Source of the DNA: Kiritimatiellota bacterium
GTDB taxonomy: Bacteria; Verrucomicrobiota; Kiritimatiellia; RFP12; UBA1067
NCBI GenBank assembly: GCA_009777165.1
Contig: WRML01000001.1
Span: 1 to 51,558, forward strand
Length of the DNA stretch: 51,558 nt
Direction: 5' to 3'
This document shows positions 4,136 through 51,558 of this stretch, one piece after another. Position numbers and translations under genes: made by a program. The first letter of the stretch is position 1; every line of letters begins with the position of its first letter. The notes under the pieces were generated by a model. It did no database searches, was not told where the DNA came from, and saw only the letters and a list, made by a program, of their open reading frames with translations.

Positions 4136-4170
4136 CGGTCGCCCTTTCGGGGCAAAATGGACACACGATT

Positions 4171-5898
4171 ATGGAAAACACGATATTAAACAGATGTGAA
4201 GCGCAACTGGCGCAATGGCTGCAATCCGCGTTTGAGATGGCGTGGGGGGGGGGGATCCCGCCCGTCCGCGTGCAACCCACGGCGGACAACCGTTTCGGGG
4301 ATTTCCAGTGCAACGACGCCATGCCGCTCGCCAAAGCCTTGAAGAAGCCCCCCCGCGTCATCGCGGAGGCTGTGGTCTCCGCCCTCCCCCCCCCCTCGAT
4401 GCTGGACAAGATCGAGATCGCGGGCCCGGGGTTCATCAACCTGACCGTCAACGCGTCCTGGCTCGCGGGGCAGGTCGCCGAGCTCTCCGCCACGCCCGCG
4501 TTCGGCATCCCGAATATGGGGCGGGGGAGGACGGTCGTCATTGACTACTCCAGCCCTAACGTCGCCAAGCCCATGCACATCGGGCACATCCGCTCGACCG
4601 TCATCGGCAACGCGCTCGACCGCCTCTATCGCGCGCTCGGCTACACCGTCGTCGCGGACAACCACCTCGGCGACTGGGGCACACAGTTCGGCATCCTGAT
4701 CCAGGGCTAACGCGCGTTCCTCACCGACGCCGAACGTGCGAGCCTCACCATCGAGACGCTGGAGCAGATTTATGTCCAGAGCTACAACCGTACCAAGGAG
4801 GACGAGGGCTGGCTCGCCGCCTGTAAAGCCGAGCTCGTCAAACTCCAGCAGGGCGACGCGGAGAACCGCGTCATCTGGGAACGCTTCATCGCCATCAGCC
4901 TGAGCGAGTTCGACCGCATCTACGAACGCCTCGGCGTCCGCTTCGACCTCTGCCGCGGCGAGAGCTTCTACAACCCCATCCTGTCCGAGACCATCCGGCT
5001 CCTGCAGGACAAGGGGCTTGCCGTGGAGAGCGAGGGCGCGCTCGTCGTCAACCTCGAAGCCGAGGGAATGCCCGTCTGCATCGTGCGCAAGAGCGACGGC
5101 GGCTTCAACTACGCCGCCACCGACATCGCCACCGTGCGCAACCGCGTGGCGGAGTTCAGCCCCGACCGCATCGTCTACGTCACCGACGAACGCCAGCAGC
5201 TCCACTTCCGGCAGTTCTTCTCCGTCTGCGCCAAGCTCGGCATCACCGCGCACCTCGAGCATGTCTGGTTCGGGCTTATGCGTTTACCCGAAGGCACGTT
5301 CTCCACGCGCCAAGGCAATGTCATCAAACTCGAGGCCCTGCTCGACGAAGCGGTGCGCCGCGCACTCGACATCATCCAGTCATCCAGCACCGACATGACC
5401 GAGGCCGAGCAACAGAAGCTCGCGGAAGAGATCGGCATCGGCGCGATCAAATACGCCGACCTCTCGCACGACCCCCAGACGCTCATCGTCTTCACGTGGG
5501 AAAAGGCGCTCGCACTCGAAGGCAACTCCGGCCCCTACCTGCAGTACGCCCATGCGCGCATCTGCAGCCTGCTCGACAAATATGCCGAGCGCCTCCCCGG
5601 CCGCGACCCCCTGCGGAACACGCTCACGCTCGACGCGCCCATCGAGAAAGAGCTTGCGCTCAAACTGCTCCAGTTCCCCGCCACCGTCGCGCGCGCGGCC
5701 GAAGCGTACAAGCCCAACGTGCTGGCCGACTACCTGTTTGGGCTTGCCCAGGCCTACAGCAGCTTCTACCAGCAATCGCCCGTGCTGAAATCCGAACCCG
5801 CCATCCGCGACAGCCGCATCTGCCTCTGCGCCATGGTCGCCCAAGTGCTGCAACAGGGATTGACGTTGCTGGGAATAGCCACACCGAGAACAATATAG
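4171..5898 (+). pseudogene. argS: arginine--tRNA ligase interrupted by a single in-frame TAA at 4708..4710 (real nonsense mutation or sequencing error)
   Basis: Fragments 4171..4710 (PMHIGHIRS HIGH motif, GDWGTQFGILIQG) and 4711..5898 are in the same frame. The sequence after the stop continues as ArgRS (ESFYNPIL, DGGFNYAATDIA, QQLHFRQ). Confidence 0.85.
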
Positions 5899-7817: not shown

Positions 7818-7875
7818 CCCCCTGCGTACGCCTGGGCAGATACAGGCCCCCCCCCCTCCACCTGACCACGGACTG

Positions 7876-9680: not shown

Positions 9681-9712
9681 GGGGGGGGGGGGTAGCCCCC
9701 CTGTTTTTTTTT
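9681..9712. terminator. G12-TAG-C6 hairpin followed by a T run
   Basis: GGGGGGGGGGGGTAGCCCCCCTGTTTTTTTTT lies immediately 3' of the endonuclease stop. The T run follows the stem only on the plus strand. Confidence 0.4.
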
Positions 9713-13655: not shown

Positions 13656-13745
13656 GGAGAGGTGACCGAGCGGTCGAAGGTGCAGCACTGGAAATGCTGT
13701 GTGCTCTTACGGGCACCGGGGGTTCGAATCCCTCCCTCTCCGCCA
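13656..13745 (+). tRNA. tRNA-Ser (anticodon GGA), CCA encoded
   Basis: Acceptor GGAGAGG/CCTCTCC, anticodon loop CTGGAAA, long variable arm GTGCTCTTACGGGCAC, T loop GGTTCGAATCC, 3' GCCA. Confidence 0.9.
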
Positions 13746-13871: not shown

Positions 13872-13910
13872 GAAAGGGGGGTTGCAAGGGCTTTGCAACC
13901 CCCTTTCTTT
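13872..13910. terminator. bidirectional hairpin terminator after the Dam gene
   Basis: GGGGGTTGCAA (13877..13887) pairs with TTGCAACCCCC (13893..13903), flanked by A-rich and T-rich runs. Confidence 0.55.
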
Positions 13911-14670
13911 ATGGCGTGATGATGATCTCGGCGAACCTCCTTCCCGTGCGGTCTTTGTTGGTCATGGCGGCGTGGGTGGAGACGGCCTTGAACCTGCACC
14001 CCTTGAACGCGGCGCGGTTGGGGGGGCTGTCGTTCAGGGTTACCACCCACGTGCCTTTGAGCCCGGCCAGCACGCCGCGCAGCCGCTCCACGTCGCCGCC
14101 CGTCCAGCCCTTGTAGGCGGCGAGGCCGTCTTCGGTCGTGTAGGGCGGGTCGATGAAGTGCAGGGCCTCGGGGCAGTCGTACAGGCGCACGCAGCGCTCC
14201 CAGTCGAGGCTCTCGACGGTGACGCGGTCGAGCCGCCTGTTGAACGCGGCGAGGCGGCGCAGCACCCCGGACGCGCTGTTCCTGCCGAGCCGTTTGACGC
14301 CGTAGCTGTGGGCGTCGGCGCCGAACGAGTACAGGTTGCGGTAGAGGTAGCCGGCCGCGCGCTGTATCTCGGTCCTGTGCGGGTGCCCCTTCGACTCGGC
14401 GAACAGCTGCCGGCTGTCCACGCTGAGGCGTGTCTCGCGGATGACGGCGGGGAGATGGTATTTGACCTGTTTGTACAGGTTTATCAGTTCCCCGTCCGTG
14501 TCGTTGAGCACCTCGTGGTAGCTCGGCCGTTTGGCGAGCAGCACGGCGGCGCCGCCGCAGCAAGGCTCGACGTAGACCTTGTGCGGGGTGCCGTCGATGA
14601 CGGGCAGGAGGTGCCTGAGCATCCTGCCCTTGCCGCCGGGGCGGCGTATGATGGGCGTCACTCTTCCCAT
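13909..14670 (-). CDS. N6-adenine DNA methyltransferase, D12 (Dam) class
   Basis: ATG at 14670 (MGRVTPIIRRPGGKGRML). VEPCCGGAAVLL motif I-like block and FIDPPYT motif IV. Confidence 0.8.
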   Translation of the reverse strand: MGRVTPIIRRPGGKGRMLRHLLPVIDGTPHKVYVEPCCGGAAVLLAKRPSYHEVLNDTDGELINLYKQVKYHLPAVIRETRLSVDSRQLFAESKGHPHRTEIQRAAGYLYRNLYSFGADAHSYGVKRLGRNSASGVLRRLAAFNRRLDRVTVESLDWERCVRLYDCPEALHFIDPPYTTEDGLAAYKGWTGGDVERLRGVLAGLKGTWVVTLNDSPPNRAAFKGCRFKAVSTHAAMTNKDRTGRRFAEIIITP

Positions 14671-14876
14671 GCCAGCTCCCCCCGGATGCACTTGTCTATG
14701 CGCTCGCACACGAAGCGGGCGCAGTTGACGGGCCATGAGTTGCCGAGCATGAACATCCGCGCGTAGTCGCCGAGCGGTCTGCCGTTGGCGCCGCTGACGG
14801 CCGTGTGGCCGTCGGGGAAGCCCATCAGGCGTTCGTACTCGTGTTCGTTTTTAGAATGGACTACGTGACGACAAGA
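14658..14876 (-). pseudogene. C-terminal remnant of a C5-cytosine DNA methyltransferase
   Basis: The open minus frame reads KNEHEYERLMGFPDGHTAVSG...MFMLGNSWPVNCARFVCERI, matching the ERLMGFP and GNS(V/W) C-terminal motifs of Dcm-type enzymes. No catalytic N-terminal part. Not in the ORF track (55 codons from the first ATG). Confidence 0.5.
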
Positions 14877-18547: not shown

Positions 18548-18570
18548 GATTTTCTCCTTTTCCTTTTGAG

Positions 18571-18675
18571 TTTCCAGTTTCCAGTTTCCAGTTGTCGATG
18601 GCCGTCGATGGCCGTCGAAATTCCTCACTCCTAATTCCTCACTCCTCACTCCTAACTCCTCACTCCTCACTCCTT
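18571..18675. repeat. junction low-complexity element
   Basis: (TTTCCAG)x3, then (GTCGATGGCC)x2, then CTCACTC/CTAATTC/CTAACTC heptamer run. Confidence 0.8.
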
Positions 18676-23870: not shown

Positions 23871-23981
23871 AGTTTCCAGTTTCCAGTTTCTAGTTTCCAG
23901 TTGTCGACTGCCATCGACAGCCATCGGCGGCTATCGATTGCCATCGAAATTCCTCACTCCTAATTACTAACTCCTAACTCC
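23871..23981. repeat. junction low-complexity element
   Basis: (AGTTTCC)x4, (GNCATCGA)x5 core, CTCACTCCTAATTACTAACTCCTAACTC. Confidence 0.8.
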
Positions 23982-26036: not shown

Positions 26037-26158
26037 GAGTTAGGAGTTAGGAAGTAGGAAGTAGGAGTTTCGACACCCCCCGACGGCAATCGACTGCCAT
26101 CGAAACCAATAACTCCTAACTCCTACTTCCTAACTCCTAACTCCTAATTCCTAACTCC
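26037..26158. repeat. junction hairpin element
   Basis: Arm GAGTTAGGAGTTAGGAAGTAGGAAGTAGGAG, core TTTCGACACCCCCCGACGGCAATCGACTGCCATCGAAA, inverted arm CTCCTAACTCCTACTTCCTAACTCCTAACTCC. Confidence 0.85.
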
Positions 26159-26907: not shown

Positions 26908-26930
26908 AAAAAAAACTCCGTTTTTTTTTA

Positions 26931-27055
26931 GTTAGGAGTGAGGAGTTAGGAAGTAGGAGTTTCGATGGCAATCGATAGCCGCCGATGGCAATCGATGGCT
27001 GTCGAAACTGGAAACCGGAAACTTCTCCTCATTCCTAACTCCTAACTCCTAATTA
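26931..27055. repeat. junction hairpin element
   Basis: AGGAGT/AGGAAGT arm, (CGATGGC-type)x4 core, CTGGAAAC units, inverted CTCATTCCTAACTCCTAACTCCTAATT arm. Confidence 0.85.
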
Positions 27056-27486: not shown

Positions 27487-27508
27487 GAAAAAAACTCCGT
27501 TTTTTTTA

Positions 27509-27624
27509 ATTAGGAATTAGGAATTAGAAATTAGGAATGAAAGAAGTTTCCAGTTTCCAGTTTCCAGTTGTCGATGGCTGTCGAAACCAGTAACTCCTAA
27601 CTCCTACTTCCTCATTCCTAACTC
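27509..27624. repeat. junction hairpin element
   Basis: (TTAGGAA)x4 arm, (GTTTCCA)x3, GTCGATGGCTGTCGAAA core, inverted CTCCTAACTCCTACTTCCTCATTCCTAACTCC arm. Confidence 0.85.
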
Positions 27625-28536
27625 CTACGGTTCCGGGGTTGCGGTCTCGACGAGGCGGACCAGCGTCTGCCGCCCGTCCTCGCCCGGGTCGCCGACGGCG
27701 ACGCCGAAGTTGCTCTCGACGGACATCGAGGTCTTGCCGGTCGCGATCTCCGTCGCGACGACGGTGTTGAACGCGAAGCCCGTCGAGCCGTCCTGGCTCG
27801 TCTCGAACACGTCGTAGATGTCCGTGCGCAGGGGCCGCAGGAGGCGGCTCGCGCCGGCCAGCGCGGACGGGTAGGCGATGAAGCCGGGGATCGTCAGGTT
27901 CGGCGCCTCCACGAAGTCGCGGAAGCCGAACAGCCCGGGCAGGTGCCCGCTGAGGATTGCCTCGCGCCCGCCGTACACGCTCGCGTCCAGGTCCACCAGC
28001 AGCGCGGTGAAGTACGCGGGGTTCAGCACCACCACGCAGTCGCCCGGCGCCATGCCGTTGCGCGTCACGAGCGCGCGCAGCGCCCCGACCTTCCCCTTGT
28101 TGAACGCCGCCAGCGTGACGACCTCCTCCTCCGGGAAGTTCGCCGCGGTGACCAGCCCGAACATCGCGTTGACGATCTTCAGGCCCACCGAGCGCGCGTT
28201 CAGCCGCGCCTTGCCCTCCCAGTACGTCGGCTGGAAGGTGGCGACCTGCACGGGGCTGACCGCGAAGCCCGCGATCGGCCGCTGGCTGATGGTCACCTTC
28301 GTGTCCTTCAGCGTCGCGACGGGGCGGATGTAGTTGTTGGCGGCGTCGTCCCACTCCTCCGCTTCGTCGGCCTTCACCAGCGGCACCACGACGGTCTCGC
28401 CGGAATGGTTGATGAATTCGCTGGAGAAGTCCAGCGAGAAGCTGCCGATGCGCTCGAGCTCCAGCTCGATGCACTCGATGAAGCGGCTGGTGTACACCTG
28501 CGCCGCCGTGTTCAGGTCTGTCTGCACAGTATTCAT
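27625..28536 (-). CDS. major capsid protein
   Basis: 303 aa directly downstream of the protease/scaffold gene, with AAGGA upstream. Called by size and position. Confidence 0.6.
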   Translation of the reverse strand: MNTVQTDLNTAAQVYTSRFIECIELELERIGSFSLDFSSEFINHSGETVVVPLVKADEAEEWDDAANNYIRPVATLKDTKVTISQRPIAGFAVSPVQVATFQPTYWEGKARLNARSVGLKIVNAMFGLVTAANFPEEEVVTLAAFNKGKVGALRALVTRNGMAPGDCVVVLNPAYFTALLVDLDASVYGGREAILSGHLPGLFGFRDFVEAPNLTIPGFIAYPSALAGASRLLRPLRTDIYDVFETSQDGSTGFAFNTVVATEIATGKTSMSVESNFGVAVGDPGEDGRQTLVRLVETATPEP

Positions 28537-29623: not shown

Positions 29624-32308
29624 TTAGTTTTCACCACGCGCATGATACTTCCCTCCACTTTTGTACCGTTTAAACTCGCCCTCGGTGATAGACCCGTAAC
29701 TGGTAATCAGCAACCGCCCGTCACGTTTCTTGGTCAGGACCGCGGCCTTGTCGCCGTGAATCAGGTAGAGCTTGCCGCGGTCCTTGTCGTGTTTGTAGGC
29801 CTCGCCCTGCTGCAGGACGCCTGGCAGCCCGCGGACAGCGTCCTTGCCGTGCTTGGCTTGGATGTGGCTCAGCCCGTGGCCGCCTTTGTGTTCGTTTGCG
29901 GGGTTGCCTGGCGCGCCGTAGTCCATCCCGATCCATCCCGTGTCCCGGCGGTACATCGCCTTCGGCTCCGCGCCTTTCCCGGCGGAGAGGATGCCCGTCG
30001 CGACGGATGCCCCGCGCTTCTGGTTCAGCCCCGGGTCCGCCGCCAGCCTCCCCTCGTCCGCCGTGCCGTGGCCGTCGCTTGAGCCCTTGGTCTCATGCTC
30101 GCGCGGGCGCCCCCCCCCTGTCCGGTCGCCGCCGCCCTCGGCGAACGTCCCGTCCGCCTCGCGGTTCGGGTTCCCGTTCATCACGGGCGGCGTTTCCTCC
30201 GGCGCGGCCGCGCCGGCATACGCCCGCGCGGCATCCTCCTCAAAGACCTTCTCCAGCGCGGTCGGCTTCTTGGCGGCCGCCGTGATTGCGCCGTCCAGCT
30301 CCTCCGCCAAGGCGTTGAGAAGTTGAGAAGTTGAGGAATTGAGAAGTTGAGAAGTTCCAACTTCTAAACTTTTCAACTTCTCTACTTCTGTACTTTTCAA
30401 CTTCTCAACTTCTGTACTTTTCGACTTCTCAACTTCTGTACTTTTTAACTTCTCAACTTCCCTCATCTTTTCCATCAGCTCTTTCGCCTTCTCGCGCCAC
30501 GGGGCCATGTCCTCGCTTAAGGCGGCCATGGCGGCCTGTGCCGCGTCCGCGCCGCGGGGGGTGTCCTTGCCCGCCCCGCCCCCCTCCGGGCGTTTTGCAA
30601 CGGGTTCTCGCCGTTTTGCAACGGGGTCGCGGTTGAGAAGTCGAGAAGTTGAGGAATTGAGGAGTCGAGAAGTTGAGGAATTGAGAAGTTGAGAAGTTGA
30701 GGAATCTAAAAGTCGAGAAGTTGAGGAATCTAAAAGTCGAGAAGTTGAGGAATCTAAAAGTCGAGAAGTTGAGGAATTGAGAAGTTGAGAAGTTGAGGAA
30801 TCTAAAAGTCGAGAAGTTGAGGAATCTAAAAGTCGAGAAGTTGAGGAATCTAAAAGTCGAGAAGTTGAGGAATCTAAAAGTCGAGAAGTTGAGGAATCTA
30901 AAAGTTGAGAAGTTGAGGAATTGAGAAGTTGAGAAGTTCCAACTTCTAAACTTTTTAACTTCTCTACTTCTGTACTTTTCAACTTTTCAACTTCTGTGCT
31001 TCTCACCGTCCAGCCGCTGCGCTCGCTCACCTCGGCGGGGTCGACGGCCAGCCCGGCGGCGGCGGCCTTGCCGGCGGTGGCGAAGACCTCGTCGGCGGTG
31101 GGCTGGCTCTCGGTCTCGAAGTCGAACGCCGCGAGGTGGGGGCGGCCGGGGAACGCGGCGTCGAGCAGCCGGTCCGTGACCTGCCGGTTGATCGCCGAGG
31201 CGATGACGGCCGCGTCGCGGCGGACGATGCTCTTCCACGTGTCGGCGTGGACGCCGCTGGCGCCCTGCCCGATGCCCGTGGGCCCGGAGAGGCTGGTGAA
31301 CACCCCCCCCGTCGCCATCAGCACGACCAGCTCCTGCTGGTGCTGGATGAACTGCGCGAACGGGCTCTGGGCCCGCGCGGCGTCCGCGTACTTCACGTCC
31401 GACCCGGCGGGCAGCGCGCCGCTGCCGCCGTCCGCCACCTTCTCCGCCGCGGCCATCCACTCGCGCTGCCGGGACGGGTCCGTCTCCGGCGGCATGATGA
31501 TGATGACGGGCGGGATGCCGTAGCGCTCCACGAACATGCCCCACTTTTTCTCCCCCAGCGCCGCGCGCACGTAGATGCCCAGCGCGGGGTAGTTGACGTG
31601 CCTCGCGCGCACCAGCGAGCAGAGCTCGCCCGGCCCGACCGGCACCACGCGCCCCGTGGCGAACTGCGTCAGCACGCCGTCCGCCTCCGGGTTCCAGTAC
31701 CACTGCCCCGTGCGGGGGTCGCGCACGAAGTTCCAGCTGTCGAAAAGCTCGAAGCGGTCCACGCCGCGCCCGCCGTCGGCCCACACCGGCGCCGTGTGGG
31801 CGAAGCCCCGGAAGAACGCCGTCGCCAGCCGCTCGACCGCCTCCCAGAGGTTCGCGTCCTCGAGGTCCCCGAACACGCCCAGCAGGAAGTCCTCCTGCTC
31901 GCGCGCCAGCCCCTCCAGCCCGTTCAGCCGGGAGGCCTTGCCGGACTTCACGCGGACGGTCCAGTCCAGGTCCGCCATCGCCCCCCCGCGCCGCTCGGTG
32001 CAGATGAAGAGCGTGGGGTCCGCGGCCTCGATCTCGTTGTAGAGCCACTGGAGGCGCACGGTGTTGCCGAGGCGGGCGGCGTCGTAGATCGCCTGGGCCT
32101 CGCGCAGGGTCAGGTTGCGCAGCGGGTTCGTCGCCTCGATCCACGCGGCGGCGTTCCGGTAGGCGCGGCCGGGCCCGCGCTCGAGCGCGAACGGGGCGGC
32201 GCCGCCCCCTTTTGAAAGGGGGGGGCGGTATATGCGCCCCTCCGAAGGATGGGGAAATTCCGCCGGGGGTTTGTTCTTCCGGGGGTCCGGTCTCGGATGC
32301 TTGCTCAC
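29624..32308 (-). CDS. portal protein (DUF935 / Mu gp29-like) with two in-frame repeat blocks and a ~300-aa C-terminal extension
   Basis: GTG 32308 overlaps the terminase stop (GTGA). N-terminal ~445 aa are portal-like (NLTLREAQAIYDAARLGN...). Continuous 894-aa frame through 30314..30996. Confidence 0.7.
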   Translation of the reverse strand: MSKHPRPDPRKNKPPAEFPHPSEGRIYRPPLSKGGGAAPFALERGPGRAYRNAAAWIEATNPLRNLTLREAQAIYDAARLGNTVRLQWLYNEIEAADPTLFICTERRGGAMADLDWTVRVKSGKASRLNGLEGLAREQEDFLLGVFGDLEDANLWEAVERLATAFFRGFAHTAPVWADGGRGVDRFELFDSWNFVRDPRTGQWYWNPEADGVLTQFATGRVVPVGPGELCSLVRARHVNYPALGIYVRAALGEKKWGMFVERYGIPPVIIIMPPETDPSRQREWMAAAEKVADGGSGALPAGSDVKYADAARAQSPFAQFIQHQQELVVLMATGGVFTSLSGPTGIGQGASGVHADTWKSIVRRDAAVIASAINRQVTDRLLDAAFPGRPHLAAFDFETESQPTADEVFATAGKAAAAGLAVDPAEVSERSGWTVRSTEVEKLKSTEVEKLKSLEVGTSQLLNSSTSQLLDSSTSRLLDSSTSRLLDSSTSRLLDSSTSRLLDSSTSQLLNSSTSRLLDSSTSRLLDSSTSRLLDSSTSQLLNSSTSRLLNSSTSRLLNRDPVAKRREPVAKRPEGGGAGKDTPRGADAAQAAMAALSEDMAPWREKAKELMEKMREVEKLKSTEVEKSKSTEVEKLKSTEVEKLKSLEVGTSQLLNSSTSQLLNALAEELDGAITAAAKKPTALEKVFEEDAARAYAGAAAPEETPPVMNGNPNREADGTFAEGGGDRTGGGRPREHETKGSSDGHGTADEGRLAADPGLNQKRGASVATGILSAGKGAEPKAMYRRDTGWIGMDYGAPGNPANEHKGGHGLSHIQAKHGKDAVRGLPGVLQQGEAYKHDKDRGKLYLIHGDKAAVLTKKRDGRLLITSYGSITEGEFKRYKSGGKYHARGEN
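30314..30462. repeat. octamer-repeat hairpin block 1 inside the portal ORF
   Basis: GTTGAGAAGTTGAGAAGTTGAGGAATTGAGAAGTTGAGAAGT turns at TCC into AACTTCTAAACTTTTCAACTTCTC... (about 100 nt). Confidence 0.85.
30632..30996. repeat. 24-nt tandem repeat / hairpin block 2 inside the portal ORF
   Basis: About 12 units of GAGGAATCTAAAAGTCGAGAAGTT and variants. The same GAGAAGTTCCAACTTCTAAAC turn as block 1, then a short inverted arm. Confidence 0.9.
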
Positions 32309-33742: not shown

Positions 33743-34477
33743 TCATAGCCCGAAAATCTCCTTCATCTTCGCGGTGCGCTCCTCGTCGGTCAGCGTCTCG
33801 TTGGCGACGATCTGCTTGGCCTCGGCGAGCCTCCGCTCCGCGGCCTCGAACTTCTCGCGCGCCAGCTTCAGTTGCTCGTCTTTCGTCTCCTGGGCGCGGG
33901 CCTTGAGCTCCAGCTCTTTCGCCTTGGACTGCCCGGCGGCGATGTCCATCGCCATCTGCGTGTAGCGGACGGCGGTCCGGGCGTCGCCCTGGAGCGCGAG
34001 GTCGGCGGCGAGGGACTTGTACGCGTCGATCAGGAGCCGGTCGGTGGAGACGGTGGCGGCGAGCGTGCCGATCTCCTCCTTGGCGATGATGGCCTGCTCG
34101 ACCTTGTGCGCGGACTCCATGCCGCGCATCCGCCCCGCCCAGTTGTAGAGCGATGTCCGCGACGGCTGCGGGACCTTGTGCTCCTCCTCCACGAACTTGG
34201 CGACCGAATACCACGGCGACCGCCGGAACAGGTCGTACACCTGCCACCGCTGGGCGTCCGTCAGACGGGCGTCCCACGCGTCGCACCGCGCCTTCGCCCT
34301 TGACGGGGGCGGGGGGTTCGAGGGATTAGGGGTTAAGGGGTTAAGGGGTTCAGGGGTTAAGGGGTTAAGGGGATTAGGGGTTAAGGATTCGATTGCCGTC
34401 GAGGGCTGTCGATTGCCATCGAGGGCTGTCGAGCCTGAACCCCTGAACCCCTTAACCCCTAACCCTGAACCCCTCAT
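33743..34477 (-). CDS. DNA-binding / small-terminase-like protein (Mu gp27-like)
   Basis: The only in-frame start is ATG 34477 (ATGA overlap with the upstream stop), so ~60 N-terminal codons are read from the repeat hairpin 34311..34474. The body has an HTH-like RWQVYDLFRRSPWYSVAKFV segment and a coiled coil. Confidence 0.45.
   Translation of the reverse strand: MRGSGLGVKGFRGSGSTALDGNRQPSTAIESLTPNPLNPLTPEPLNPLTPNPSNPPPPSRAKARCDAWDARLTDAQRWQVYDLFRRSPWYSVAKFVEEEHKVPQPSRTSLYNWAGRMRGMESAHKVEQAIIAKEEIGTLAATVSTDRLLIDAYKSLAADLALQGDARTAVRYTQMAMDIAAGQSKAKELELKARAQETKDEQLKLAREKFEAAERRLAEAKQIVANETLTDEERTAKMKEIFGL
34311..34474. repeat. hairpin element with GGGGTTAA-type arms, read as coding
   Basis: (GGGGTTAA/GGGGTTCA/GGGGATTA)x8 arm, (TCGATTGCCNTCGAGGGCTG)x2 core, inverted CCTGAACCCCTGAACCCCTTAACCCCTAACCCTGAACCCC arm. 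Confidence 0.85.
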
Positions 34478-34743
34478 ATCGCCTCCATCGCGTCGCTCCC
34501 GTCGGGCGTGATGCCCCACGTCTCCATCCCGGTGTAGCTGTTGGTGCGCTTCATGACCCACCCGCGGTCGCGGAGGGTGAAGAAGACGCGCTCGCGCTCG
34601 GCGGTCGTCAGGGGCCGCCCGACCGCGCTCTGCGCGACGTCCATCAGCGAGTCCTTCGCCATGCCGTCGGGCGCGACCCGCGCCAGCGCGGCCAGCGCCT
34701 GCTTGCAGACGGCGGCCGTCTGCGGGTCCATGGGCTTGCTCAT
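34474..34743 (-). CDS. hypothetical phage protein (89 aa)
   Basis: ATG 34743 overlaps the upstream stop (ATGA). MSKPMDPQTAAVCKQALAAL... Confidence 0.5.
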   Translation of the reverse strand: MSKPMDPQTAAVCKQALAALARVAPDGMAKDSLMDVAQSAVGRPLTTAERERVFFTLRDRGWVMKRTNSYTGMETWGITPDGSDAMEAI

Positions 34744-35168
34744 CGTGCGCCCCCTTTCGTCATGATGATGTCCAGCTTCTTGTCCATGCTGTCCACCTGC
34801 TTGCCCATCGAGGTGATGAGCCCGCGCATCTCCGAGCCCTGGTCGCGGACGCCGTTGACCTTCTCGTAGATGTCCTTGATGCAGTCGTCCGCGGCCTTGC
34901 AGCGGATGGCGCACTCGCTGCGCTTGGCGCACAGCTCGATCTCCCGGGTGAGCCTCCCGTCCATCGCGTCGAGCTTCCTGGAGAGCCCGTCGATGTCCGC
35001 CTTTGTGGCCGCCTCCGGCGCGAGCGTGACGGAGACGGGCTGGCCCGCGATCGTCGCCTCCGTCTTCTGGTTGCGCGCCTTCACCCAGCCGACCGCCGCG
35101 TTGATGATCTGCGTCAGCATCGCGCCCGTCAGGAACATCCCGCCGTTTGTCATCAGGTCCGTGTCCAT
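34740..35168 (-). CDS. first late-operon gene: TM plus coiled-coil protein (Mu gp25 / DUF2730-like)
   Basis: 142 aa. GGMFLTGAMLTQIINAAVGWV hydrophobic segment followed by a coiled coil. Confidence 0.45.
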   Translation of the reverse strand: MDTDLMTNGGMFLTGAMLTQIINAAVGWVKARNQKTEATIAGQPVSVTLAPEAATKADIDGLSRKLDAMDGRLTREIELCAKRSECAIRCKAADDCIKDIYEKVNGVRDQGSEMRGLITSMGKQVDSMDKKLDIIMTKGGAR

Positions 35169-35305
35169 AACGCCTAACTCCTCATTTCTAATTCCTCATT
35201 CCTAATTAAAAAGGTCCCGGCGCACCCGCAGGAAGACGGGGGCGGATGTGGACGCGCGCGGGTGTGTGGTGTCCGCGCGGCCGGGCGTCCAATGCGGAGT
35301 GCGGA

Positions 35306-37173: not shown

Positions 37174-37243
37174 GAGGACGGATTTTAATCAGGAATTAGA
37201 AATTAGGAATTAGGAATTAGGAATTAGGAAAGGAAGACAGGAG

Positions 37244-37366: not shown

Positions 37367-37423
37367 GAGGACGGATTTACAGTCAGGAATTAGGAATTAG
37401 GAATTAGGAAAGGAAGACAGGAC

Positions 37424-37992: not shown

Positions 37993-38004
37993 GGGGTACA
38001 GTGA

Positions 38005-38126
38005 GTAGCGGTTAGTGGTTAGTTTACAGTTTTTAGTTTTTAGTTTTTAGAGCAATGCCTCGAAGCGCATCAACTAAAAACTATAAACTAAAAACTCAAA
38101 ACTCAAAAAAAAACGGAGTTTTTTTT
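38005..38126 (+). repeat. 122-nt hairpin leader, copy 1
   Basis: GTAGCGGTTAGTGGTTAGTTTACAGTTTTTAGTTTTTAGTTTTTAG-AGCAATGCCTCGAAGCGCATCAA-CTAAAAAC... ending in A9-CGGAG-T8. The first 78 nt are identical to 40351..40428. Confidence 0.9.
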
Positions 38127-38410: not shown

Positions 38411-38833
38411 ATGAGTAGTCCGGGGGAGATGATGTTCGTGGCGAAGCCGGGCTACGGGCGGACGCGGGCGCGGCCGAACCCGATGGCGGCGGCGGTGCGC
38501 TCGGCGCGGGGATGCTGGCTGGCGTTCGCGACGGTCTGCTGGCTGCAGTTCGAGGCGGATGAGAACTGGCGGGTGCCGGAGAGCCTGCGCGTGAGGTCGC
38601 TGCCGGGCTCGTGCGCGGGGTGCGCGTTCGGGACGCGGGTGGCGTTTGATTCGCGCTGGCCGCTGTTCTGCGAGGCGGCGCACCGGATGATTCCGCGCCC
38701 GCCGTTCGACAGCGATACGCGGCGGGCGCCGTTCTGCCCGCTCGCCGAGGACGCGGGGGCAAGGCTGGAGCCGGGCAGGTGCCCGGCGGCGGAGAGGATG
38801 GCGGGGGAAGTTATACTTAGGAATGAGGAATGA
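38411..38833 (+). CDS. hypothetical Cys-rich early protein
   Basis: ATG 38411 lies 2 nt after the upstream stop. The C-terminal LRNEE residues are read from the junction repeat. Confidence 0.4.
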   Translation: MSSPGEMMFVAKPGYGRTRARPNPMAAAVRSARGCWLAFATVCWLQFEADENWRVPESLRVRSLPGSCAGCAFGTRVAFDSRWPLFCEAAHRMIPRPPFDSDTRRAPFCPLAEDAGARLEPGRCPAAERMAGEVILRNEE

Positions 38834-38891
38834 GGAATTAGGAATTTCGATGGCCGTCGATGGCGGTCGATGGCAGTCGAAATTCCTAATT
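38817..38891. repeat. junction hairpin element
   Basis: TTAGGAATGAGGAATGAGGAATTAGGAATT arm, (TCGATGGCNG)x3 core, AATTCCTAATT arm. Confidence 0.8.
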
Positions 38892-38912: not shown

Positions 38913-39152
38913 ATGACGGAAGGACAGAAGGACACAAGGACGGATGGACGGGTGGACTGCTGCACGGACACGGGCGGGTGCCCGGCGTGGCTGTTCGCCG
39001 TGGTGATGCTGGCGGCGCTCGTGATACTGGCGCTCACCGAGGGGGAGCCGGAGCCGTGCTACCCGGACCCGGTGTGCGAGATGTGCGGGCAGGTGCTGGA
39101 CGGGAGCCACACGCCGTGGTGTACGCCGGAATGGGAAGCGGAGGGGAAATGA
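38913..39152 (+). CDS. small membrane protein
   Basis: ATG 38913 behind A6-TCGGAGGC-T6. WLFAVVMLAALVILAL TM segment. Confidence 0.45.
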   Translation: MTEGQKDTRTDGRVDCCTDTGGCPAWLFAVVMLAALVILALTEGEPEPCYPDPVCEMCGQVLDGSHTPWCTPEWEAEGK

Positions 39153-40354
39153 GCATGGACTATCTGGAAAACGAGGCGTTCAGGCGGCTGTGCAATGAGC
39201 CGGACGTCAGGATTGACGATAACCACTACAGGGTTGACACGCACCAGCTCATGATCAAGCGCAGGCTTGAGGGCACGAGCGGCTGGAAGAGGCACCAGCG
39301 CTTCGACACGCACGAGGCGATGGAGCGGGCGTGGGCGGACATCAAGGGGATTGACGGGGCGGTGGCGGAGGATTATCTGTCATCGAACAAAACGAATGAA
39401 ACGAATAAAGGCATTCACGCGGATTCGTTGCATTCGATGACAGGGCTGTATGCGCCCTCCGCAGGAGGGAACACCCCCGGCCGGGATACCGGCCACCCCC
39501 TTTCAAAAGGGGGCTTGGGCGGCACCCCCTTTCAAAAGGGGGCGGTGGCGGCGCAGGGGCAGCTTTTCACGCGGCACGACGGCGCGCACACGGCGCAGGC
39601 GGTGTCGGAGCAGTACAGGCGGGCGGTGAGCGGGCTTCTGGAGGGTATCCGCTTCGGCGCGATGCTCCTGGACCTTCAGGACAGCTTGATAATTTGTCGC
39701 GACAAATTTTCAAGTTTCTTCGCCCACGGTGGGGACAGGAGGGGCGGGACTGGCGTCAAGGAGTGGCTTTCGGAGCATTGCCCGGAGGTTGACTACGGGT
39801 GGGCAATGAAGTTCAAGCGGCTTGCGGAGGGCGTGCTGGAGCATTGCAAGGTGCCTGCGGAAGTGCCGCTGGCGCTTGCCCTGCCGCAACCCTACGGCTT
39901 GGAACTGTATGCGCCCTCCGCAGGAGGGAACACCCCCGGCCGGGATACCGGTCTCCCCCTTTCAGAAGGGGGCTTGGGTGGCGCCCCCTTCGGGAAGGGG
40001 GCCGCGGAGGACGCGGAGGTTGCCGGGGACAAGAGGCTGGCGAAGGTCCGGCGGGAGGTCGCGCTGTTCCTTGAGGGGAAGAGCGCGCGGCAGCTGGAGT
40101 TCGAGTTCGGGCACAGGGAGCCGAAGCCGAGGGGGGGGGACAGGCGCAGCGGGATCAGGCTGACCGAGATCGAGAAGCATGAGTATGCGGTGGAGCGCGC
40201 GAGGCGGGACTGGACGAGGGCGCTGGCGGACATCAAGGCGCTGGTGGAGATGCAGACGCACCTGCTGCTGGACGAGGATATGCTGGCAAGGGGCGTGGAG
40301 GTCCTGGCGATCGCGAGGGACGGTCTCCGCGCGGCGCAGGGGAAGAGGAAGTAG
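39149..40354 (+). CDS. hypothetical early protein carrying two copies of a 97-nt multi-hairpin module
   Basis: ATGA overlap with the upstream gene; 401 aa. LYAPSAGGNTPGRDTG(H/L)PLS(K/E)GGLGG repeated at 39446..39542 and 39905..40001. Confidence 0.5.
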   Translation: MSMDYLENEAFRRLCNEPDVRIDDNHYRVDTHQLMIKRRLEGTSGWKRHQRFDTHEAMERAWADIKGIDGAVAEDYLSSNKTNETNKGIHADSLHSMTGLYAPSAGGNTPGRDTGHPLSKGGLGGTPFQKGAVAAQGQLFTRHDGAHTAQAVSEQYRRAVSGLLEGIRFGAMLLDLQDSLIICRDKFSSFFAHGGDRRGGTGVKEWLSEHCPEVDYGWAMKFKRLAEGVLEHCKVPAEVPLALALPQPYGLELYAPSAGGNTPGRDTGLPLSEGGLGGAPFGKGAAEDAEVAGDKRLAKVRREVALFLEGKSARQLEFEFGHREPKPRGGDRRSGIRLTEIEKHEYAVERARRDWTRALADIKALVEMQTHLLLDEDMLARGVEVLAIARDGLRAAQGKRK

Positions 40355-40472
40355 CGGTTAGTGGTTAGTTTACAGTTTTTAGTTTTTAGTTTTTAGAGCA
40401 ATGCCTCGAAGCGCATCAACTAAAAACTAAAAACTGTAAACTAAAAACTCAAAAAAAAACGGAGTTTTTCTT
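40351..40472 (+). repeat. 122-nt hairpin leader, copy 2 (upstream of the transposase)
   Basis: Near-identical to 38005..38126. Confidence 0.9.
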
Positions 40473-45770: not shown

Positions 45771-46328
45771 GTTTTACAGCTGAAAAGCGGTTGAGTCACA
45801 CCCGCATCAAGGGGGTTCAGGACATCCGTTCAGGGTGTAAGTACAGCCGAAAGGCGGTTGAGTCACACTCGGGTCGCGGAGCAGGACGCGGCGGGCGTAG
45901 GTGTAAGTACAGCCGAAAGGCGGTTGAGTCACACTGGTCCGCCTCATGGATCGCCGCCATTTCGTGGTGTAAGCACAGCCGAAAGGCGGTTGAGTCACAC
46001 CCAACCACGCGTTCGGGATTCCTCGGATGTCGGTGTAAGCACAGCCGAAAGGCGGTTGAGTCACACCCGGAGACCGTCACTTTGAACCAGCGGAAGGGTG
46101 TAAGCACAGCCGAAAGGCGGTTGAGTTACAGCCGCCCGTATGCGTATAACCTACGCCTGACAGGTGTAAGCACAGCCGAAAGGCGGTTGAGTTACAGCGC
46201 CCCCTTACTTTTTGACACAAACAAAAAAGGTGTAAGCACAGCCGAAAGGCGGTTGAGTTACAGCTGGGGTTTTATTGGGTTACCGTCTTGTCGAGGGCAC
46301 GGGCACAGCCGGAAGGCGGTTGACGCGC
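45771..46328 (+). CRISPR. orphan CRISPR array with 8 spacers
   Basis: Seven well-conserved 35-nt repeats GGTGTAAG(T/C)ACAGCCGAAAGGCGGTTGAGT(C/T)ACA(C/G) start at 45834, 45900, 45966, 46032, 46097, 46163 and 46228. Degenerate terminal repeats lie at 45771..45801 and 46295..46328. Unique spacers are 30-32 nt and the period is 65-67 nt. Confidence 0.85.
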
Positions 46329-48168: not shown

Positions 48169-49676
48169 TTCTTGCCCATGACCTGGGTACCGGTGGCAAC
48201 AAAGCGTCGCTGTTCGACAGCGACGGCGTGCGGCTGGCTTCCGTGTTCGAGCCTTACGAGACGCTCTATCCCGGACCGGGGATGCACGAGCAGCGACCCG
48301 CCGACTGGTGGGACGCCATCGTGCGCAGTACACGGCGACTGCTGGAGGCGGTGGCGGCACACGGCATCACAGGGCACGACATCGGTTCCCTCGCGATTTC
48401 CGGCCACAGTCTCGGCTGTGTGCCGCTTGATGCCGACGGCAACCTGCTGCGAGCAACCACGCCCATCTGGTCCGACAGCCGCGCGGGGCACGAGGCCGCG
48501 GCGTTTTTCCGTCACGTGGACCCGACCGACTGGTATCTGCGCACCGGCAACGGTTTCCCTGCGGCACACTACACGCTGTTCAAAATGCTGTGGCACAAAA
48601 ACAACGAGCCCGAACGCTTCAGCCGCCTCGCCACGGTGCTCGGCACAAAAGATTACATCAACTACCGCCTCACGGGCATACAGGCGACCGACTACAGTTA
48701 CGCCTCCGGCTGCGGCGGCTACGATTTGACCGGATGGGACTATGACGGCGAACTGATTGCGCGCGCCGGGCTTTCGCCGTCGCTGTTCCCCAGGCTGGTC
48801 CCCGCGACAGCGATTTTAGGCCCCCTCACGCCCCAAGCCGCCGATGAGCTCGGGCTTCCGCCCACGCTCCTTGTCGCGGCGGGAGGCGTGGACAATTCCT
48901 GCATGGCGCTCGGCGCCGGATGTTTTCAGGAGGGACGTTCCTACGCCTCGCTCGGCTCCTCGTCGTGGATTGCCGTCTCCGACTCGAAACCGCTCCTCGA
49001 CAGCCGGACGAAACCGTACGTCTTTGCGCACGTCGTCCCCGGGATGTTCACTTCGGCGCTCGCCATTTTCTCCAGCGGCACCACGTTCCGCTGGTTGCGC
49101 GACCAGCTCTGCCGCGACCTCACCGAACGCGCGTCAGCGGAAAACCGCACGGTCTATGCGCTGATGGATGCCGAAGCCCAGCACTCGCCGCCTGGCGCGC
49201 GAGGGCTCCTGCACAACCCAAGCCTTGCGGGGGGGTCATCGCTCGACCCCAGCCCGTCCATCCGCGGCGCATTCTTGGGGCTCGATCTCACGCACACCCG
49301 CGCCGACGTGATTCGCGCCGTGATGGAAGGCATTGCCCTGAACCTGCGGCTGGTGCTGGACGCCTTCCGTTCGCTCGCGGCGATACGCTCCGAAATGATT
49401 GCCGTCGGCGGCGGCGCCAACAGCGGCGTGTGGCGGCAGATTTACGCCGACGTGTTGCGCGTCACGATGACGACGACGACCATCGGCCAAGACGCCGCCG
49501 CCCTGGGTGCCGCCGCGATTGCCGCCGTCGGCACCGGGCAATGGAGCGGATTTGAGAAGATTGGCTCGATCCTGCGCGTCGAAGACCGTCTCCTTCCCAT
49601 TGACGCCAACGCCAACATCTACGATAACATCCTGCCTCGCTTCCAGAACGACATCCGCTTTTTATCGGCGCGATAA
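48156..49676 (+). CDS. FGGY-family carbohydrate kinase (xylulokinase-like)
   Basis: ATG 48156 behind AAAGGAGA. LAHDLGTGGNKASL phosphate-1 motif; ~506 aa. Confidence 0.75.
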   Translation: MQRLILAHDLGTGGNKASLFDSDGVRLASVFEPYETLYPGPGMHEQRPADWWDAIVRSTRRLLEAVAAHGITGHDIGSLAISGHSLGCVPLDADGNLLRATTPIWSDSRAGHEAAAFFRHVDPTDWYLRTGNGFPAAHYTLFKMLWHKNNEPERFSRLATVLGTKDYINYRLTGIQATDYSYASGCGGYDLTGWDYDGELIARAGLSPSLFPRLVPATAILGPLTPQAADELGLPPTLLVAAGGVDNSCMALGAGCFQEGRSYASLGSSSWIAVSDSKPLLDSRTKPYVFAHVVPGMFTSALAIFSSGTTFRWLRDQLCRDLTERASAENRTVYALMDAEAQHSPPGARGLLHNPSLAGGSSLDPSPSIRGAFLGLDLTHTRADVIRAVMEGIALNLRLVLDAFRSLAAIRSEMIAVGGGANSGVWRQIYADVLRVTMTTTTIGQDAAALGAAAIAAVGTGQWSGFEKIGSILRVEDRLLPIDANANIYDNILPRFQNDIRFLSAR

Positions 49677-49740
49677 CTGAAAACAGTCAGGCTCAATAAT
49701 CTGTTTTCCCGGTTTTTTCATGTTCTTATAAACGCCCGTT

Positions 49741-51213
49741 TCATAGATTCGCAAGTTTCTCCGACACGAGCTTGCCGACGATCTGGGGGTCGGCCTTGCC
49801 TTGGCTGAGCTTCATCACTTGCCCGACGATAAACCCGGCCGCCGCGGTCTTGCCGGCCTTGTAGCTTTCGACGGATTTCGGGTTCTCCGCGATCACCTTG
49901 TCCACGAACGCCTCCAGCGTCGCGGTGTCGCTGACCTGCCCGAGCCCGCGCGCCTCGACCAGCGCACCCGGCATCCCGCCCTTCTCGAAAATCTCCGCCA
50001 CAAGCTCCTTTGCGGTCGTGCCGTTGATGACGCGCCCGCCCACGAGCGTCACCAGCTCCGCCAGTGCCTCGGGCGTGAACGCGCATTCGGAGATCGCCTT
50101 GCCCGTCTCGGACAGCAGGCGCATGATCTCCGTCATAAACCAGTTCGACACCGCCTTGCCCTGGCCGCACAGCCGCGCCGCCGCCTCGAAGAAATCCGCA
50201 TTCGCCTTCTCGTCCGCCAGCACCCCCGCGTCGTACTCCGGGATGCCGTACTCCCTGACCATGCGCTCGCGCCGCGCGGACGGCAGCTCGGGCAGCGCCG
50301 CGCGCCATGTCTCGATCTGCTCCTCGCTCAGCACGACCGGCACGAGGTCCGGGTCCGGGAAGTAGCGGTAGTCATGCGCGTTCTCCTTAGTGCGCATGGA
50401 CTGCGTCTCTCCGGCGTCCGGGTCCCACCGCCGTGTCTCCTGCACGAGCCTGCCGCCGTGCGTCAGCGCATGGATCTGCCGCGCGATCTCATACTCCAGC
50501 GCCGCGTCAATCCCCTTGAACGTGTTCATGTTCTTGATCTCGACGCGCGTGCCGAGTTTCTCCTGACCCTCCGGGCGGATGCTCACGTTCACGTCCGAGC
50601 GCATCTGGCCCTTCTCCATGTCGCAATCGCTCACGCCCGCATAAATCAAAATCTGCCGCAACGTGTGCAGGTACGCCATCACCTCCTCGCGCGACGACAT
50701 ATCCGGCTCCGTCACGATCTCGATCATCGGCATGCACCCCCGGTTGAAGTCCACGCCGCTGAACCGCGCGTAATGGTTGATCTTCGCCGCGTCCTCCTCC
50801 AGGTGGATGTGGTGGATACGGATGCGTTTCACGCTATGATTCCTAACGCCTAACGCCTCATTCCTAATTCCTAATTCCTCATTCCTAATTTCAACCCCCC
50901 CCCCCACGCAGAACGGGCGCAGGCTCTGGGTGATCTGGTAATTCTTCGGGATGTCCGGGTAGAAATAGCTCTTCCGGTCGAACGTGCTGTAGCGGCTGAT
51001 CTCGCACCCCAGCATCATCCCCCCCGTGACCGCCAGCCGCACCGCCTCGCGGTTCACCACCGGCAGCGTCCCCGGGAACCCGAGGCACCCCGGGCAAGTG
51101 TTCGCGTTCGCCTCCGCCCCGAACGCCGTGCTGCACCCGCACCACAGCTTGCTCTTCACCTTCAGGTGGACATGCGTCTCCAGCCCGACGGTCACCAAAT
51201 ACTTGCTCATCAC
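49741..51213 (-). CDS. gatB: Asp/Glu-tRNA(Asn/Gln) amidotransferase subunit B, with an in-frame repeat insert
   Basis: VTVGLETHVHL, HLEEDAAK and YRYFPDPDL motifs. Extra IRNEELGIRNEALGVRN segment encoded by 50839..50891. Confidence 0.9.
   Translation of the reverse strand: MMSKYLVTVGLETHVHLKVKSKLWCGCSTAFGAEANANTCPGCLGFPGTLPVVNREAVRLAVTGGMMLGCEISRYSTFDRKSYFYPDIPKNYQITQSLRPFCVGGGVEIRNEELGIRNEALGVRNHSVKRIRIHHIHLEEDAAKINHYARFSGVDFNRGCMPMIEIVTEPDMSSREEVMAYLHTLRQILIYAGVSDCDMEKGQMRSDVNVSIRPEGQEKLGTRVEIKNMNTFKGIDAALEYEIARQIHALTHGGRLVQETRRWDPDAGETQSMRTKENAHDYRYFPDPDLVPVVLSEEQIETWRAALPELPSARRERMVREYGIPEYDAGVLADEKANADFFEAAARLCGQGKAVSNWFMTEIMRLLSETGKAISECAFTPEALAELVTLVGGRVINGTTAKELVAEIFEKGGMPGALVEARGLGQVSDTATLEAFVDKVIAENPKSVESYKAGKTAAAGFIVGQVMKLSQGKADPQIVGKLVSEKLANL
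50839..50891. repeat. heptamer repeat insert inside gatB
   Basis: ATTCCTAACGCCTAACGCCTCATTCCTAATTCCTAATTCCTCATTCCTAATT, the same unit family as the prophage junction arms. Followed by C11 (50895..50905). Confidence 0.85.
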
Positions 51214-51558
51214 CGTACCTCCTCATACGCGGCCGCAGCCCGCAAAACCAAATCCTCCCGAAACGCCGGCGCAACGATCGTCACGTCACCCATCGACAAC
51301 GCGCAGAGACCCGCAAGCTCGGCGGACAAGGCAAACCACACCCCCGTCCCGCCGTCCGCCGCCACCACGTCGCACACCTTGAACGCCTCCTCGAAATCCC
51401 TCCTGATGAGCGTGCGGATCTTCTGCGCCCGCAGGAAATACTCCTCATAACACCCCTGGCCCACCACATACGTCCCGAGGAGGACCTGCCGTTTCTGCTC
51501 CATGCTGAAGCCCCCCCCCCCCCCCCCCCAGCACACACCCACCCCCCGCCCCCCCGCC
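51210..51558 (-). CDS. gatA: amidotransferase subunit A, C-terminal part (partial; runs off the window)
   Basis: LLGTYVV...YEEYFLRAQKIRTLIRRDFEEAF matches the GatA C-terminal region. The stop overlaps the gatB start by 4 nt. The frame passes through a C20 tract (51511..51530). Confidence 0.65.
   Translation of the reverse strand, partial: AGGRGVGVCWGGGGGGFSMEQKRQVLLGTYVVGQGCYEEYFLRAQKIRTLIRRDFEEAFKVCDVVAADGGTGVWFALSAELAGLCALSMGDVTIVAPAFREDLVLRAAAAYEEVR

Follow-up and report, generated by a model that had tools for sequence, protein, structure and literature searches.

An AGGAATK heptanucleotide array in frame in gatB of a Kiritimatiellota bacterium, and related arrays in prophage and other genomes

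How does a tandem repeat with a 7-nt unit, which in its pure form carries a stop codon into every frame, come to be translated inside a conserved domain of a housekeeping enzyme? The question is raised by a complete 51,558-nt contig from a Kiritimatiellaeota metagenome bin, which was analysed as a whole and is referred to here as the window. Its gatB gene contains seven heptanucleotide units at positions 50838–50890 of the minus strand; an earlier note, made from the sequence alone, had described this repeat as one of prophage type. The answer that we consider probable is that a dispersed heptanucleotide family, whose unit is AGGAATK (K = G or T), has contributed a real and translated array to gatB. 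With the same degree of confidence, we propose that this array was copied into the permissive tip of a hairpin and has been kept there as a tolerated passenger without a role in amidotransferase chemistry.

The array and its reading frame in gatB

The open reading frame (ORF) 49741–51213 (minus strand) comprises 490 codons from a GTG start; the corresponding database protein, P0001, is one codon shorter at the start (489 aa). It was identified as GatB by Pfam matches to PF02934 (GatB_N) and PF02637 (GatB_Yqey) and by full-length similarity to the Aquifex protein (3h0l_B, E 8e-149). An AlphaFold2 model of the protein was superimposed on the solved GatB structures 3ip4_B and 3al0_B with template modelling (TM) scores of about 0.8. 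The ratio of nonsynonymous to synonymous substitution rates (dN/dS), determined against three relatives, was 0.13–0.24. Such values correspond to purifying selection and suggest that gatB is functional; together with the intact length of the gene, they speak against a pseudogene. In its 90% protein cluster, the window GatB is the single member.

On the coding strand, the units read AGGAATG AGGAATT AGGAATT AGGAATG AGGCGTT AGGCGTT AGGAATC or, in an alternative register, TTAGGAA/TGAGGAA/TTAGGCG, and their in-frame translation is (I)RNEELGIRNEALGVRN. With its surroundings, the array reads GTG GGG GGG GGG GTT GAA ATT AGG AAT GAG GAA TTA GGA ATT AGG AAT GAG GCG TTA GGC GTT AGG AAT CAT AGC GTG AAA, corresponding to the peptide V G G G V E I R N E E L G I R N E A L G V R N H S V K. 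Tandem Repeats Finder called the region 50839–50890 with a period of 7 (7.4 copies, 82% matches, score 62), which bears out the in-frame heptamer repeat of the earlier note, and additionally with a period of 21 (2.5 copies, 87% matches, score 76), the super-period of the array. By its head-to-tail 7-nt units, present in at least three copies, the gatB array falls among the dispersed heptanucleotide repeat arrays. The motif TTCCTMATTCCT, allowing for up to one mismatch, had 34 matches in the window, three of them in gatB, compared to 0.13 expected.

A homopolymer that had also been noticed earlier, C11 on the plus strand, is indeed present beside the array, at 50895–50905. Read on the minus strand as G11, it lies 8 nt upstream of the array and encodes the conserved GGG together with the first base of the next Val codon. 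The sister strain on contig L001 shares G11, and more distant orthologues have GGC GGC GGC. Within the 51 kb, five homopolymers of G or C with a length of 10–12 nt were counted (4244–4254, 4386–4395, 7847–7856, 9681–9692, and 50895–50905), whereas base composition predicts about 0.6. Gly runs in housekeeping genes are encoded by at least two of the five, namely argS (4244–4254) and gatB (50895–50905); a G10 was furthermore seen in gatA on contig L004.

As 7 and 3 have no common factor, a pure TTAGGAA array contains a TAG per 21 nt in every frame, and on the opposite strand a TAA. Most AGGAATK arrays of the window are interrupted by stops in each of the six frames. That of gatB is open in one of its three sense frames, which is the frame of gatB, and in one antisense frame. 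It is readable because two AGGAATG units sit exactly three units (21 nt) apart in the phase of gatB: the units ending in G give AAT GAG where the TTAGGAA register would give AAT TAG. No inverted partner of the array was found within 750 nt, its RNA showed no structure (z −0.06), and the array is neither a palindrome nor a long hairpin.

The size of the insertion was determined from the number of residues between the motifs GGGV-x-I and K-R/F-I-R-I. This hairpin was examined in 114 of the 120 closest GatB proteins, 105 by pattern and 9 by eye; 6 were left out. The turn consists of 6 residues in 111 of the 114 orthologues (102 by pattern, 9 by eye), for example QTPAGP. The deviating proteins are that of the window, P0001, with 19 residues, P0002 with 31, and P0003 with 10. 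In the window, the replaced turn spans 19 codons (RNEELGIRNEALGVRNHSV) at 50830–50886 (minus strand). When the solved GatB of Aquifex, Thermotoga, and S. aureus were aligned to the window protein, a gap of 12–13 residues opened at the same point. By these comparisons, 19 residues stand in for the native turn of six, a net lengthening by 13. The insertion into a short hairpin that the earlier note had described is therefore upheld by the 114 orthologues and the three structures, but its size, put at about 16 aa, was overestimated.

In the AlphaFold2 model (mean predicted local distance difference test, pLDDT, 79), the strands 105–109 and 127–140 were confident, whereas the insert was drawn as a weak helix with a pLDDT below 50. 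The 19-residue tip is of low complexity and probably flexible, and it would be exposed at the surface. The GatB element that reads the first tRNA base pair is a 3_10 turn formed by S. aureus residues 183–186 (PMC2811023). It was ruled out that the hairpin carrying the array is this tRNA-discriminating turn, as the hairpin corresponds to S. aureus residues 107–114, approximately.

A repeat in a contig from a metagenome bin could have been introduced, or given a wrong size, by short-read assembly through it, all the more as the last 48 bases of the contig are a poly-C artefact and argS contains an in-frame stop. We give this explanation next to no credence. Both flanks of the array belong to the same gatB gene with the frame kept, and the array (52 nt) is shorter than a read. 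Contig L004, from another analysis in the European Nucleotide Archive (ENA), is 100% identical to window positions 48426–51520 (3,095 nt) with the array included, so that a single allele was seen in two identical assemblies. Furthermore, the hairpin is enlarged at these codons in two relatives that come from other samples. Misassembly of the array is very unlikely. The terminal poly-C (51511–51558) is recognized as an assembly-end artefact by comparison with L004, where the coding strand has G10 at this place and then continues with normal gatA.

Related arrays in the prophage and in other genomes

Between about 14 and 45 kb, the window contains a Mu-like prophage with matches to Portal_Mu, Mu-like_Pro, terminase, and DUF3164. 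The leaders and hairpin arms of the family that it contains stand 15 kb away from the gatB array, and the flanks of the prophage (1–13.5 kb and 46–51.5 kb) are ordinary chromosome. The gatB array is the sole AGGAATK copy of the window outside the prophage. Within the prophage, AGGAATK arrays occupy intergenic DNA at 27508, 35173, 37187, 37385, and 38819. Those at 37187–37230 and 37385–37410 (plus strand) are AGGAATT arrays upstream of start codons. Arms with the same units as gatB lie at 27508–27538 and at 38819–38845; the latter is part of a composite element (38819–38890, plus strand) consisting of an AGGAATG/AGGAATT arm, a self-complementary core (TCGATGGCNN)3, and a short inverted arm AATTCCTAATT. 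The kinship of the gatB units with those of the prophage, as proposed in the earlier note, was found at all four of these places, and the order of units also agrees with the array at 35168–35207.

This last array (35168–35207, minus strand) is the closest to the gatB array within the window. It forms the leader of a prophage ORF (34740–35168), adjoining its ATG, and reads AATT AGGAATG AGGAATT AGAAATG AGGAGTT AGGCGTT and then ATG; it is closed in all six frames. Its units follow the order seen in gatB, including AGGCGTT, a variant that was absent from all 615 units of 120 arrays in other genomes. An intergenic array on metagenome contig L125 contains the ordered string AGGAATT AGGAATG AGGCGTT AGGCGTT AGGA of the gatB array with 32 of 32 nt identical, and L125 was the only match when JGI metagenomes were scanned with 23 nt. 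To this copy, the prophage leader is 93% identical over 29 nt. Additionally, gatA of L001 carries three in-frame units (L001:197–221; AATGAGG CGTTAGG CGTGAGG), which are identical to a part of the gatB array in 24 of 25 nt and encode GNEALGVRS. The window gatA does not have these units, and L001 GatA is 8 residues longer at this place.

Independent slippage would not yield a shared order of units, and the gatB array would therefore have been copied from other copies or have a common source with them. The same evidence bears on the rival idea of a local birth, in which slippage during replication would have expanded a heptamer present by chance in the loop, independently of other arrays. For it speak the abundance in the contig of arrays with many different heptamer units, which suggests an array-prone genome, the local 32-nt tandem duplication in the L001 insert, and the G11 tract that adjoins the array. 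Against it stands the order of units with two rare AGGCGTT copies, which recurs over 32 identical nt in L125 and, with slight differences, in the gatA of L001 and the leader of the prophage ORF; moreover, none of the orthologues has a TTAGGAA-like seed in the turn. We regard local growth as improbable. The shared rare variants suggest that the arrays may be actively mobile.

The family was further surveyed with one genome per species. AGGAATK arrays were found at no fewer than 120 loci in Bacteroidota, Firmicutes, Acidobacteriota, Planctomycetota, Verrucomicrobiota, Cyanobacteria, Patescibacteria, and others, often as inverted pairs around a GC-rich hairpin. In viral contigs, 103 stretches of the family unit were counted compared to 18 of a permuted control unit. 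A single 100-kb contig, IMGVR_UViG_3300021256_000006 of IMG/VR, contains at least 10 separate AGGAATK arrays (loci L143, L146, L159, L175, L176, and L207) and thus represents a repeat-rich phage genome.

Of 132 arrays, no fewer than 5 are read in frame within a conserved protein. In Fmt of Quinella sp. (L092:6807–7742), the array encodes RNEELGIRNL, and the turn exceeds that of 3tqq by 5 residues. IspD of Bacteroidales UBA1189 (L036:460–1251) contains both arms and, relative to 5ddt, has approximately 25 additional residues at a single point. Both arms were also found in an inter-domain linker of an EgtB-like protein of the isolate Hymenobacter rubidus DG7B (L064:2378–3829). The remaining cases are an ABC ATPase of Selenomonadaceae (L006:5699–7216; IIPHSSFLIPN) and an alpha-L-rhamnosidase of Hydrogenedentota (L045:125–3094; LGIRNEELGMG). 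Together with gatB of the window and of the relative on contig L002, and with gatA of L001, the family is thus present in frame in several unrelated conserved genes. The claim of the earlier note that the family is chromosomal and can enter coding sequence without breaking the frame holds on the strength of these at least 120 loci, the at least 5 of 132 in-frame arrays, and L001 gatA; its derivation from the window alone was weak.

Could the array have been retained for its own action on gatB mRNA or DNA, for instance through a CsrA-type GGA-binding regulator, through ribosomes (Shine-Dalgarno-like AGGA/GAGG), or through a phage factor recognizing such arrays in the leaders of the phage? Its sense orientation is that of the leader arrays upstream of start codons (35168–35207, 37187–37230, and 37385–37410), it contains seven GGA motifs, and binding of S1, Csp, or CsrA has been proposed for leaders with the heptamer TAACTGA (MacGregor 2015, PMC4679880). 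The array is not conserved, however, and the inserts of the sister strains are quite different. It is also unstructured, no regulator was identified, and in-frame copies elsewhere stand in unrelated genes in both orientations. A selected cis-acting element appears highly improbable to us.

In the account that we prefer, AGGAATK arrays normally make up gene leaders and intergenic hairpin arms, in the Mu-like prophage as well as in numerous genomes of bacteria and phages. One such array, of the leader or the arm type, would have been copied into the tip of the gatB hairpin, and the 19-residue tip would persist because this site is permissive. Selection would act as a sieve, letting an array persist only with a 21-nt stop-free phase. 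Candidate routes of copying are template switching and illegitimate recombination, perhaps aided by the adjacent G run and by microhomology at the junction TCGAAATTC. By either route, we infer copying as the origin of the array and neutrality as its fate.

Several observations weigh against this account. No donor with flanks matching those of the gatB array was found. At the junctions of the array (ATT|AGG ... GTG|AAA), neither a target-site duplication nor a terminal repeat was seen by eye, no systematic search having been run. The contig L125 may belong to another organism, and the shared 32 nt could then reflect transfer. A search with (LGIRNEE)x6 among 5.8 billion proteins returned just domainless ORFs of 25–71 residues and no other large protein with at least three periods. 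Furthermore, the array is supported by two assemblies, of which L004 may stem from the same reads as the window. Finally, neutrality is assumed, and the seven GGA or Shine-Dalgarno-like motifs in the mRNA could matter.

Some of these results need qualification. The short ORFs recovered with (LGIRNEE)x6 were rejected as proteins, being spurious calls over intergenic arrays; the search missed the GatB of the window itself and is blind to arrays of fewer than about three periods. Within this reach, the search indicates that long in-frame arrays are rare. Viral sequences were scanned with the rare variant: an 18-mer gave 9 matches, all chance matches in ordinary coding sequence (NEALGV/NEELGV), and a 21-mer gave none, so that no phage donor was found. 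The look-up for transposases covered Pfam on the ORFs of the window. In a search of the whole window, Rfam matched tRNA-Ser alone, and the arrays are covered by none of its families.

Besides the element at 38819–38890, composite elements occur in intergenic DNA of the late region of the prophage at 18569–18674, 23871–23981, 26037–26158, 26930–27052, 27508–27627, and 34313–34474. Their common plan is a heptamer (or octamer) arm, two to five self-complementary decamers TCGAYNGCNN, and an inverted arm, often followed by A7–9 CGGAG T4–9 and a start codon; the units vary by locus (AGTTTCC, TCCTAAC, GGGGTTAA, and others). The ORF 38978–40354 is flanked by a pair of elements that are almost the same in sequence and measure about 110 nt each (38003–38125 and 40350–40470). 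They consist of TTAGTTT/TTAGTTTT arms around GAGCAATGCCTCGAAGCGCATC, inverted AACTAAA arms, and A9 CGGAG with a T-run.

A second and much larger in-frame repeat of the same contig is found in the portal ORF (29624–32308, minus strand; 894 codons, Portal_Mu at aa 88–432), which reads without a stop through two octamer-based inverted arrays. These lie at 30314–30460 and 30638–31005 and encode STEVEKLK... and (SSTSRLLD)n, the latter with a 24-nt period and 12.5 copies. Beyond the arrays, a C-terminus of about 230 residues has no Pfam match.

Three different inserts at one GatB hairpin

The three GatB proteins with a deviating hairpin, P0001, P0002, and P0003, form one clade with a neighbor-joining bootstrap of 99.8% (473 gap-free columns). 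In the window, L001, and L002, the same six codons are replaced, each time by different DNA: a sense array in the window, an antisense array in L002, and a GC-rich palindrome in L001. In the antisense array of L002, GTCCTAA GTCCTAA GTCCCAA, the unit whose TAA would be in frame reads CAA. The insert of the sister strain (L001:681–788; ENA ERZ27257302) encodes a hairpin segment of 31 residues, contains a 32-nt tandem duplication, and has a predicted RNA hairpin of −64.7 kcal/mol (z −7.7). It is a palindromic long hairpin that lies in frame and in this resembles the Rickettsia palindromic elements (RPE) discussed below. A comparison of the three inserts with one another, and of the L001 insert with the window, gave merely chance matches of 12–13 nt.

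The GatB hairpin is a clade-wide hot spot of repeat-derived DNA, and the heptamer array may not have been the first insertion there. The earlier note had named an equally long, non-repetitive segment in close relatives free of such repeats as the finding that would speak against a heptamer insertion. The segment of L001, the closest relative, is longer and not heptameric; it is itself a palindromic repeat, however, and L001 does carry the heptamers, in gatA. The comparison with orthologues that the note had proposed for delimiting the insert gave 6 residues in 111 of 114 proteins and 19 in the window.

As a refinement of the copying account, the three inserts might go back to one event. A single composite element with a sense arm, a palindromic core, and an antisense arm would have entered the hairpin of the clade ancestor once, and differential loss would have left the left AGGAATK arm in the window, the GC-rich core in L001, and the right arm (the three units given above) in L002. 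The monophyly of the insert-bearing proteins (99.8%) and the replacement of the same six codons fit this idea. So do the positions of the remnants, as the sense array of the window abuts the left junction and the antisense array of L002 the right one, and the strong hairpin (−64.7 kcal/mol) of the L001 insert. Both arms are in frame in IspD (L036) and in the EgtB-like protein (L064), so that a whole element would be translatable, and the plan of arm, core, and inverted arm is seen in intergenic elements of the window and in many of other phyla. Furthermore, the right junction TCG AAA/G TTC, which is found in L003 and L001 and is presumably ancestral, is identical to the sequence TCGAAATTC that joins core and arm in the window elements. 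This match was noticed post hoc, however, and the three inserts retain no similarity. A common ancestor would require three different frame-preserving deletions in addition to the insertion; the units of L002 (TTAGGAC) are unlike those of the window, and the core of L001 is not of the TCGATGGCNN decamer type. We consider this single-insertion history possible, at a tentative level well below the copying account itself.

Upstream of gatB and in the same operon, the window contains the 3' end of gatA (51210–51542, minus strand). In a relative (GCA_009778475.1; L003:8856–10001), GatA has just 382 residues. Compared to the Aquifex protein, it is without the region of the GGSSGG motif and has DTGGR in place of DTGGS, with Arg for the nucleophile Ser. 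Judged from its sequence, this GatA may be glutaminase-dead in this clade while GatB is still under purifying selection. Elsewhere on the chromosomal flanks, argS (4132–5898, plus strand) is interrupted by a lone in-frame TAA at 4708–4710 (…GILIQG*RAFL…) with the frame unchanged on either side; an error in sequencing, a nonsense mutation of recent origin, and recoding are all conceivable. A tRNA-Ser(GGA) (13656–13745, plus strand) directly adjoins the prophage on its left, the first gene on the phage side being a D12 adenine methyltransferase (13909–14736). At the right edge (45834–46264), 66-nt tandem repeats (131 nt at a higher order) were found in 4.5 copies of 74–79% identity; their consensus begins with GGTGTAAGCACAGCCGAAAGGCGGTTGAGT, and they had no Rfam match.

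Known repeat systems and meaning of the gatB array

To our knowledge, neither a function nor a mechanism of spreading has been established for heptanucleotide arrays. In the searchable open-access literature, no paper was found for AGGAATTAGGAATT or its three permutations, and terms for 7-nt repeats had no match in a 2025 survey of short tandem repeats (PMC12699852). Reports of bacterial arrays with this unit length go back to work on Calothrix PCC 7601, and a detailed literature on them was called absent in 2015 (PMC4692102). Heptameric simple sequence repeats (SSRs) were reported for Xanthomonas and Nostoc (PMC4692102), and TAACTGA repeats for Beggiatoaceae, Cyanobacteria, and Bacteroidetes (MacGregor 2015, PMC4679880).

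These TAACTGA repeats (PMC4679880) and the cyanobacterial short tandemly repeated repetitive (STRR) heptamers and long SSRs (cited in PMC4692102) resemble the AGGAATK family in many respects. Both consist of tandem 7-nt units, mostly in intergenic DNA and often just upstream of start codons. Both carry stops in all frames of one orientation, are distributed in patches across distant phyla, and have no known mechanism of spreading. In both, a minority of sets lie inside ORFs and are translated as 7-residue repeats. The cases inside ORFs reported for TAACTGA mostly concern hypothetical proteins or the termini of proteins (PMC4679880), whereas the gatB array, apart from its AGGAATK unit, is located inside a conserved catalytic domain of a housekeeping enzyme and stands in the stop-bearing orientation, rescued by phased G variants. 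Unlike TAACTGA, furthermore, AGGAATK arrays often form inverted arms around a palindromic core.

RPE (PMC10969869) share with the gatB array that a short dispersed repeat without a transposase of its own lies in frame in unrelated conserved genes, and they were judged compatible with protein fold and function (PMC10969869). They are palindromes about 150 bp long, have a conserved peptide each, and are restricted to Rickettsia, whereas the gatB insert is a one-armed tandem array of 49 nt without a hairpin; as a long palindrome, only the L001 insert is RPE-like.

Tandem repeats of Borgs (PMC9879509) are likewise nucleotide repeats in ORFs that add low-complexity, probably disordered residues and evolve fast. 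They are reported to originate locally and independently of one another, with next to none in the genome of the host (PMC9879509), in contrast to the gatB array with its related copies elsewhere. The gatB unit also differs from the Borg repeats described there in measuring 7 nt, so that just triplets of units keep the frame. Phase-variable SSR contingency loci are similar in having a unit that is not a multiple of three inside a coding sequence, here next to the G11 homopolymer. Unlike these loci, gatB is a housekeeping gene under purifying selection, its array is imperfect (82% matches), and one allele was seen. The gatB array is thus set apart from the known cases by its unit, its site in a catalytic domain in the stop-bearing orientation, a traceable shared variant, and a three-way hot spot.

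A bolder interpretation, which we offer as speculative and hold to be somewhat less probable than the single composite insertion alone, is that AGGAATK arrays and palindromic cores are very small, phage-associated mobile elements found Bacteria-wide. They would have a copying mechanism of their own and would land repeatedly in frame where loops of conserved enzymes are encoded (GatB, GatA, Fmt, IspD, EgtB-like, and others), with the GatB clade preserving the left arm, core, and right arm of one composite insertion. If this were true, the elements would be an analogue of the RPE outside Rickettsia.

The rare pair of AGGCGTT units serves as a traceable mark that connects a housekeeping gene, the neighbouring gene in a sister strain, a prophage leader, and an unrelated contig, and it argues for copying between loci over local growth. 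At the same time, the locus represents a natural experiment in protein tolerance, in which a stop-laden repeat survives in catalytic domains by virtue of a 21-nt phase; in GatB and Fmt it occupies the tip of a hairpin, and IspD is a further case. Should the pattern prove general, a class of loop insertions derived from repeats would lie hidden in annotation pipelines and in alignments of protein families, and the repeat family would supply conserved enzymes with new peptide segments.

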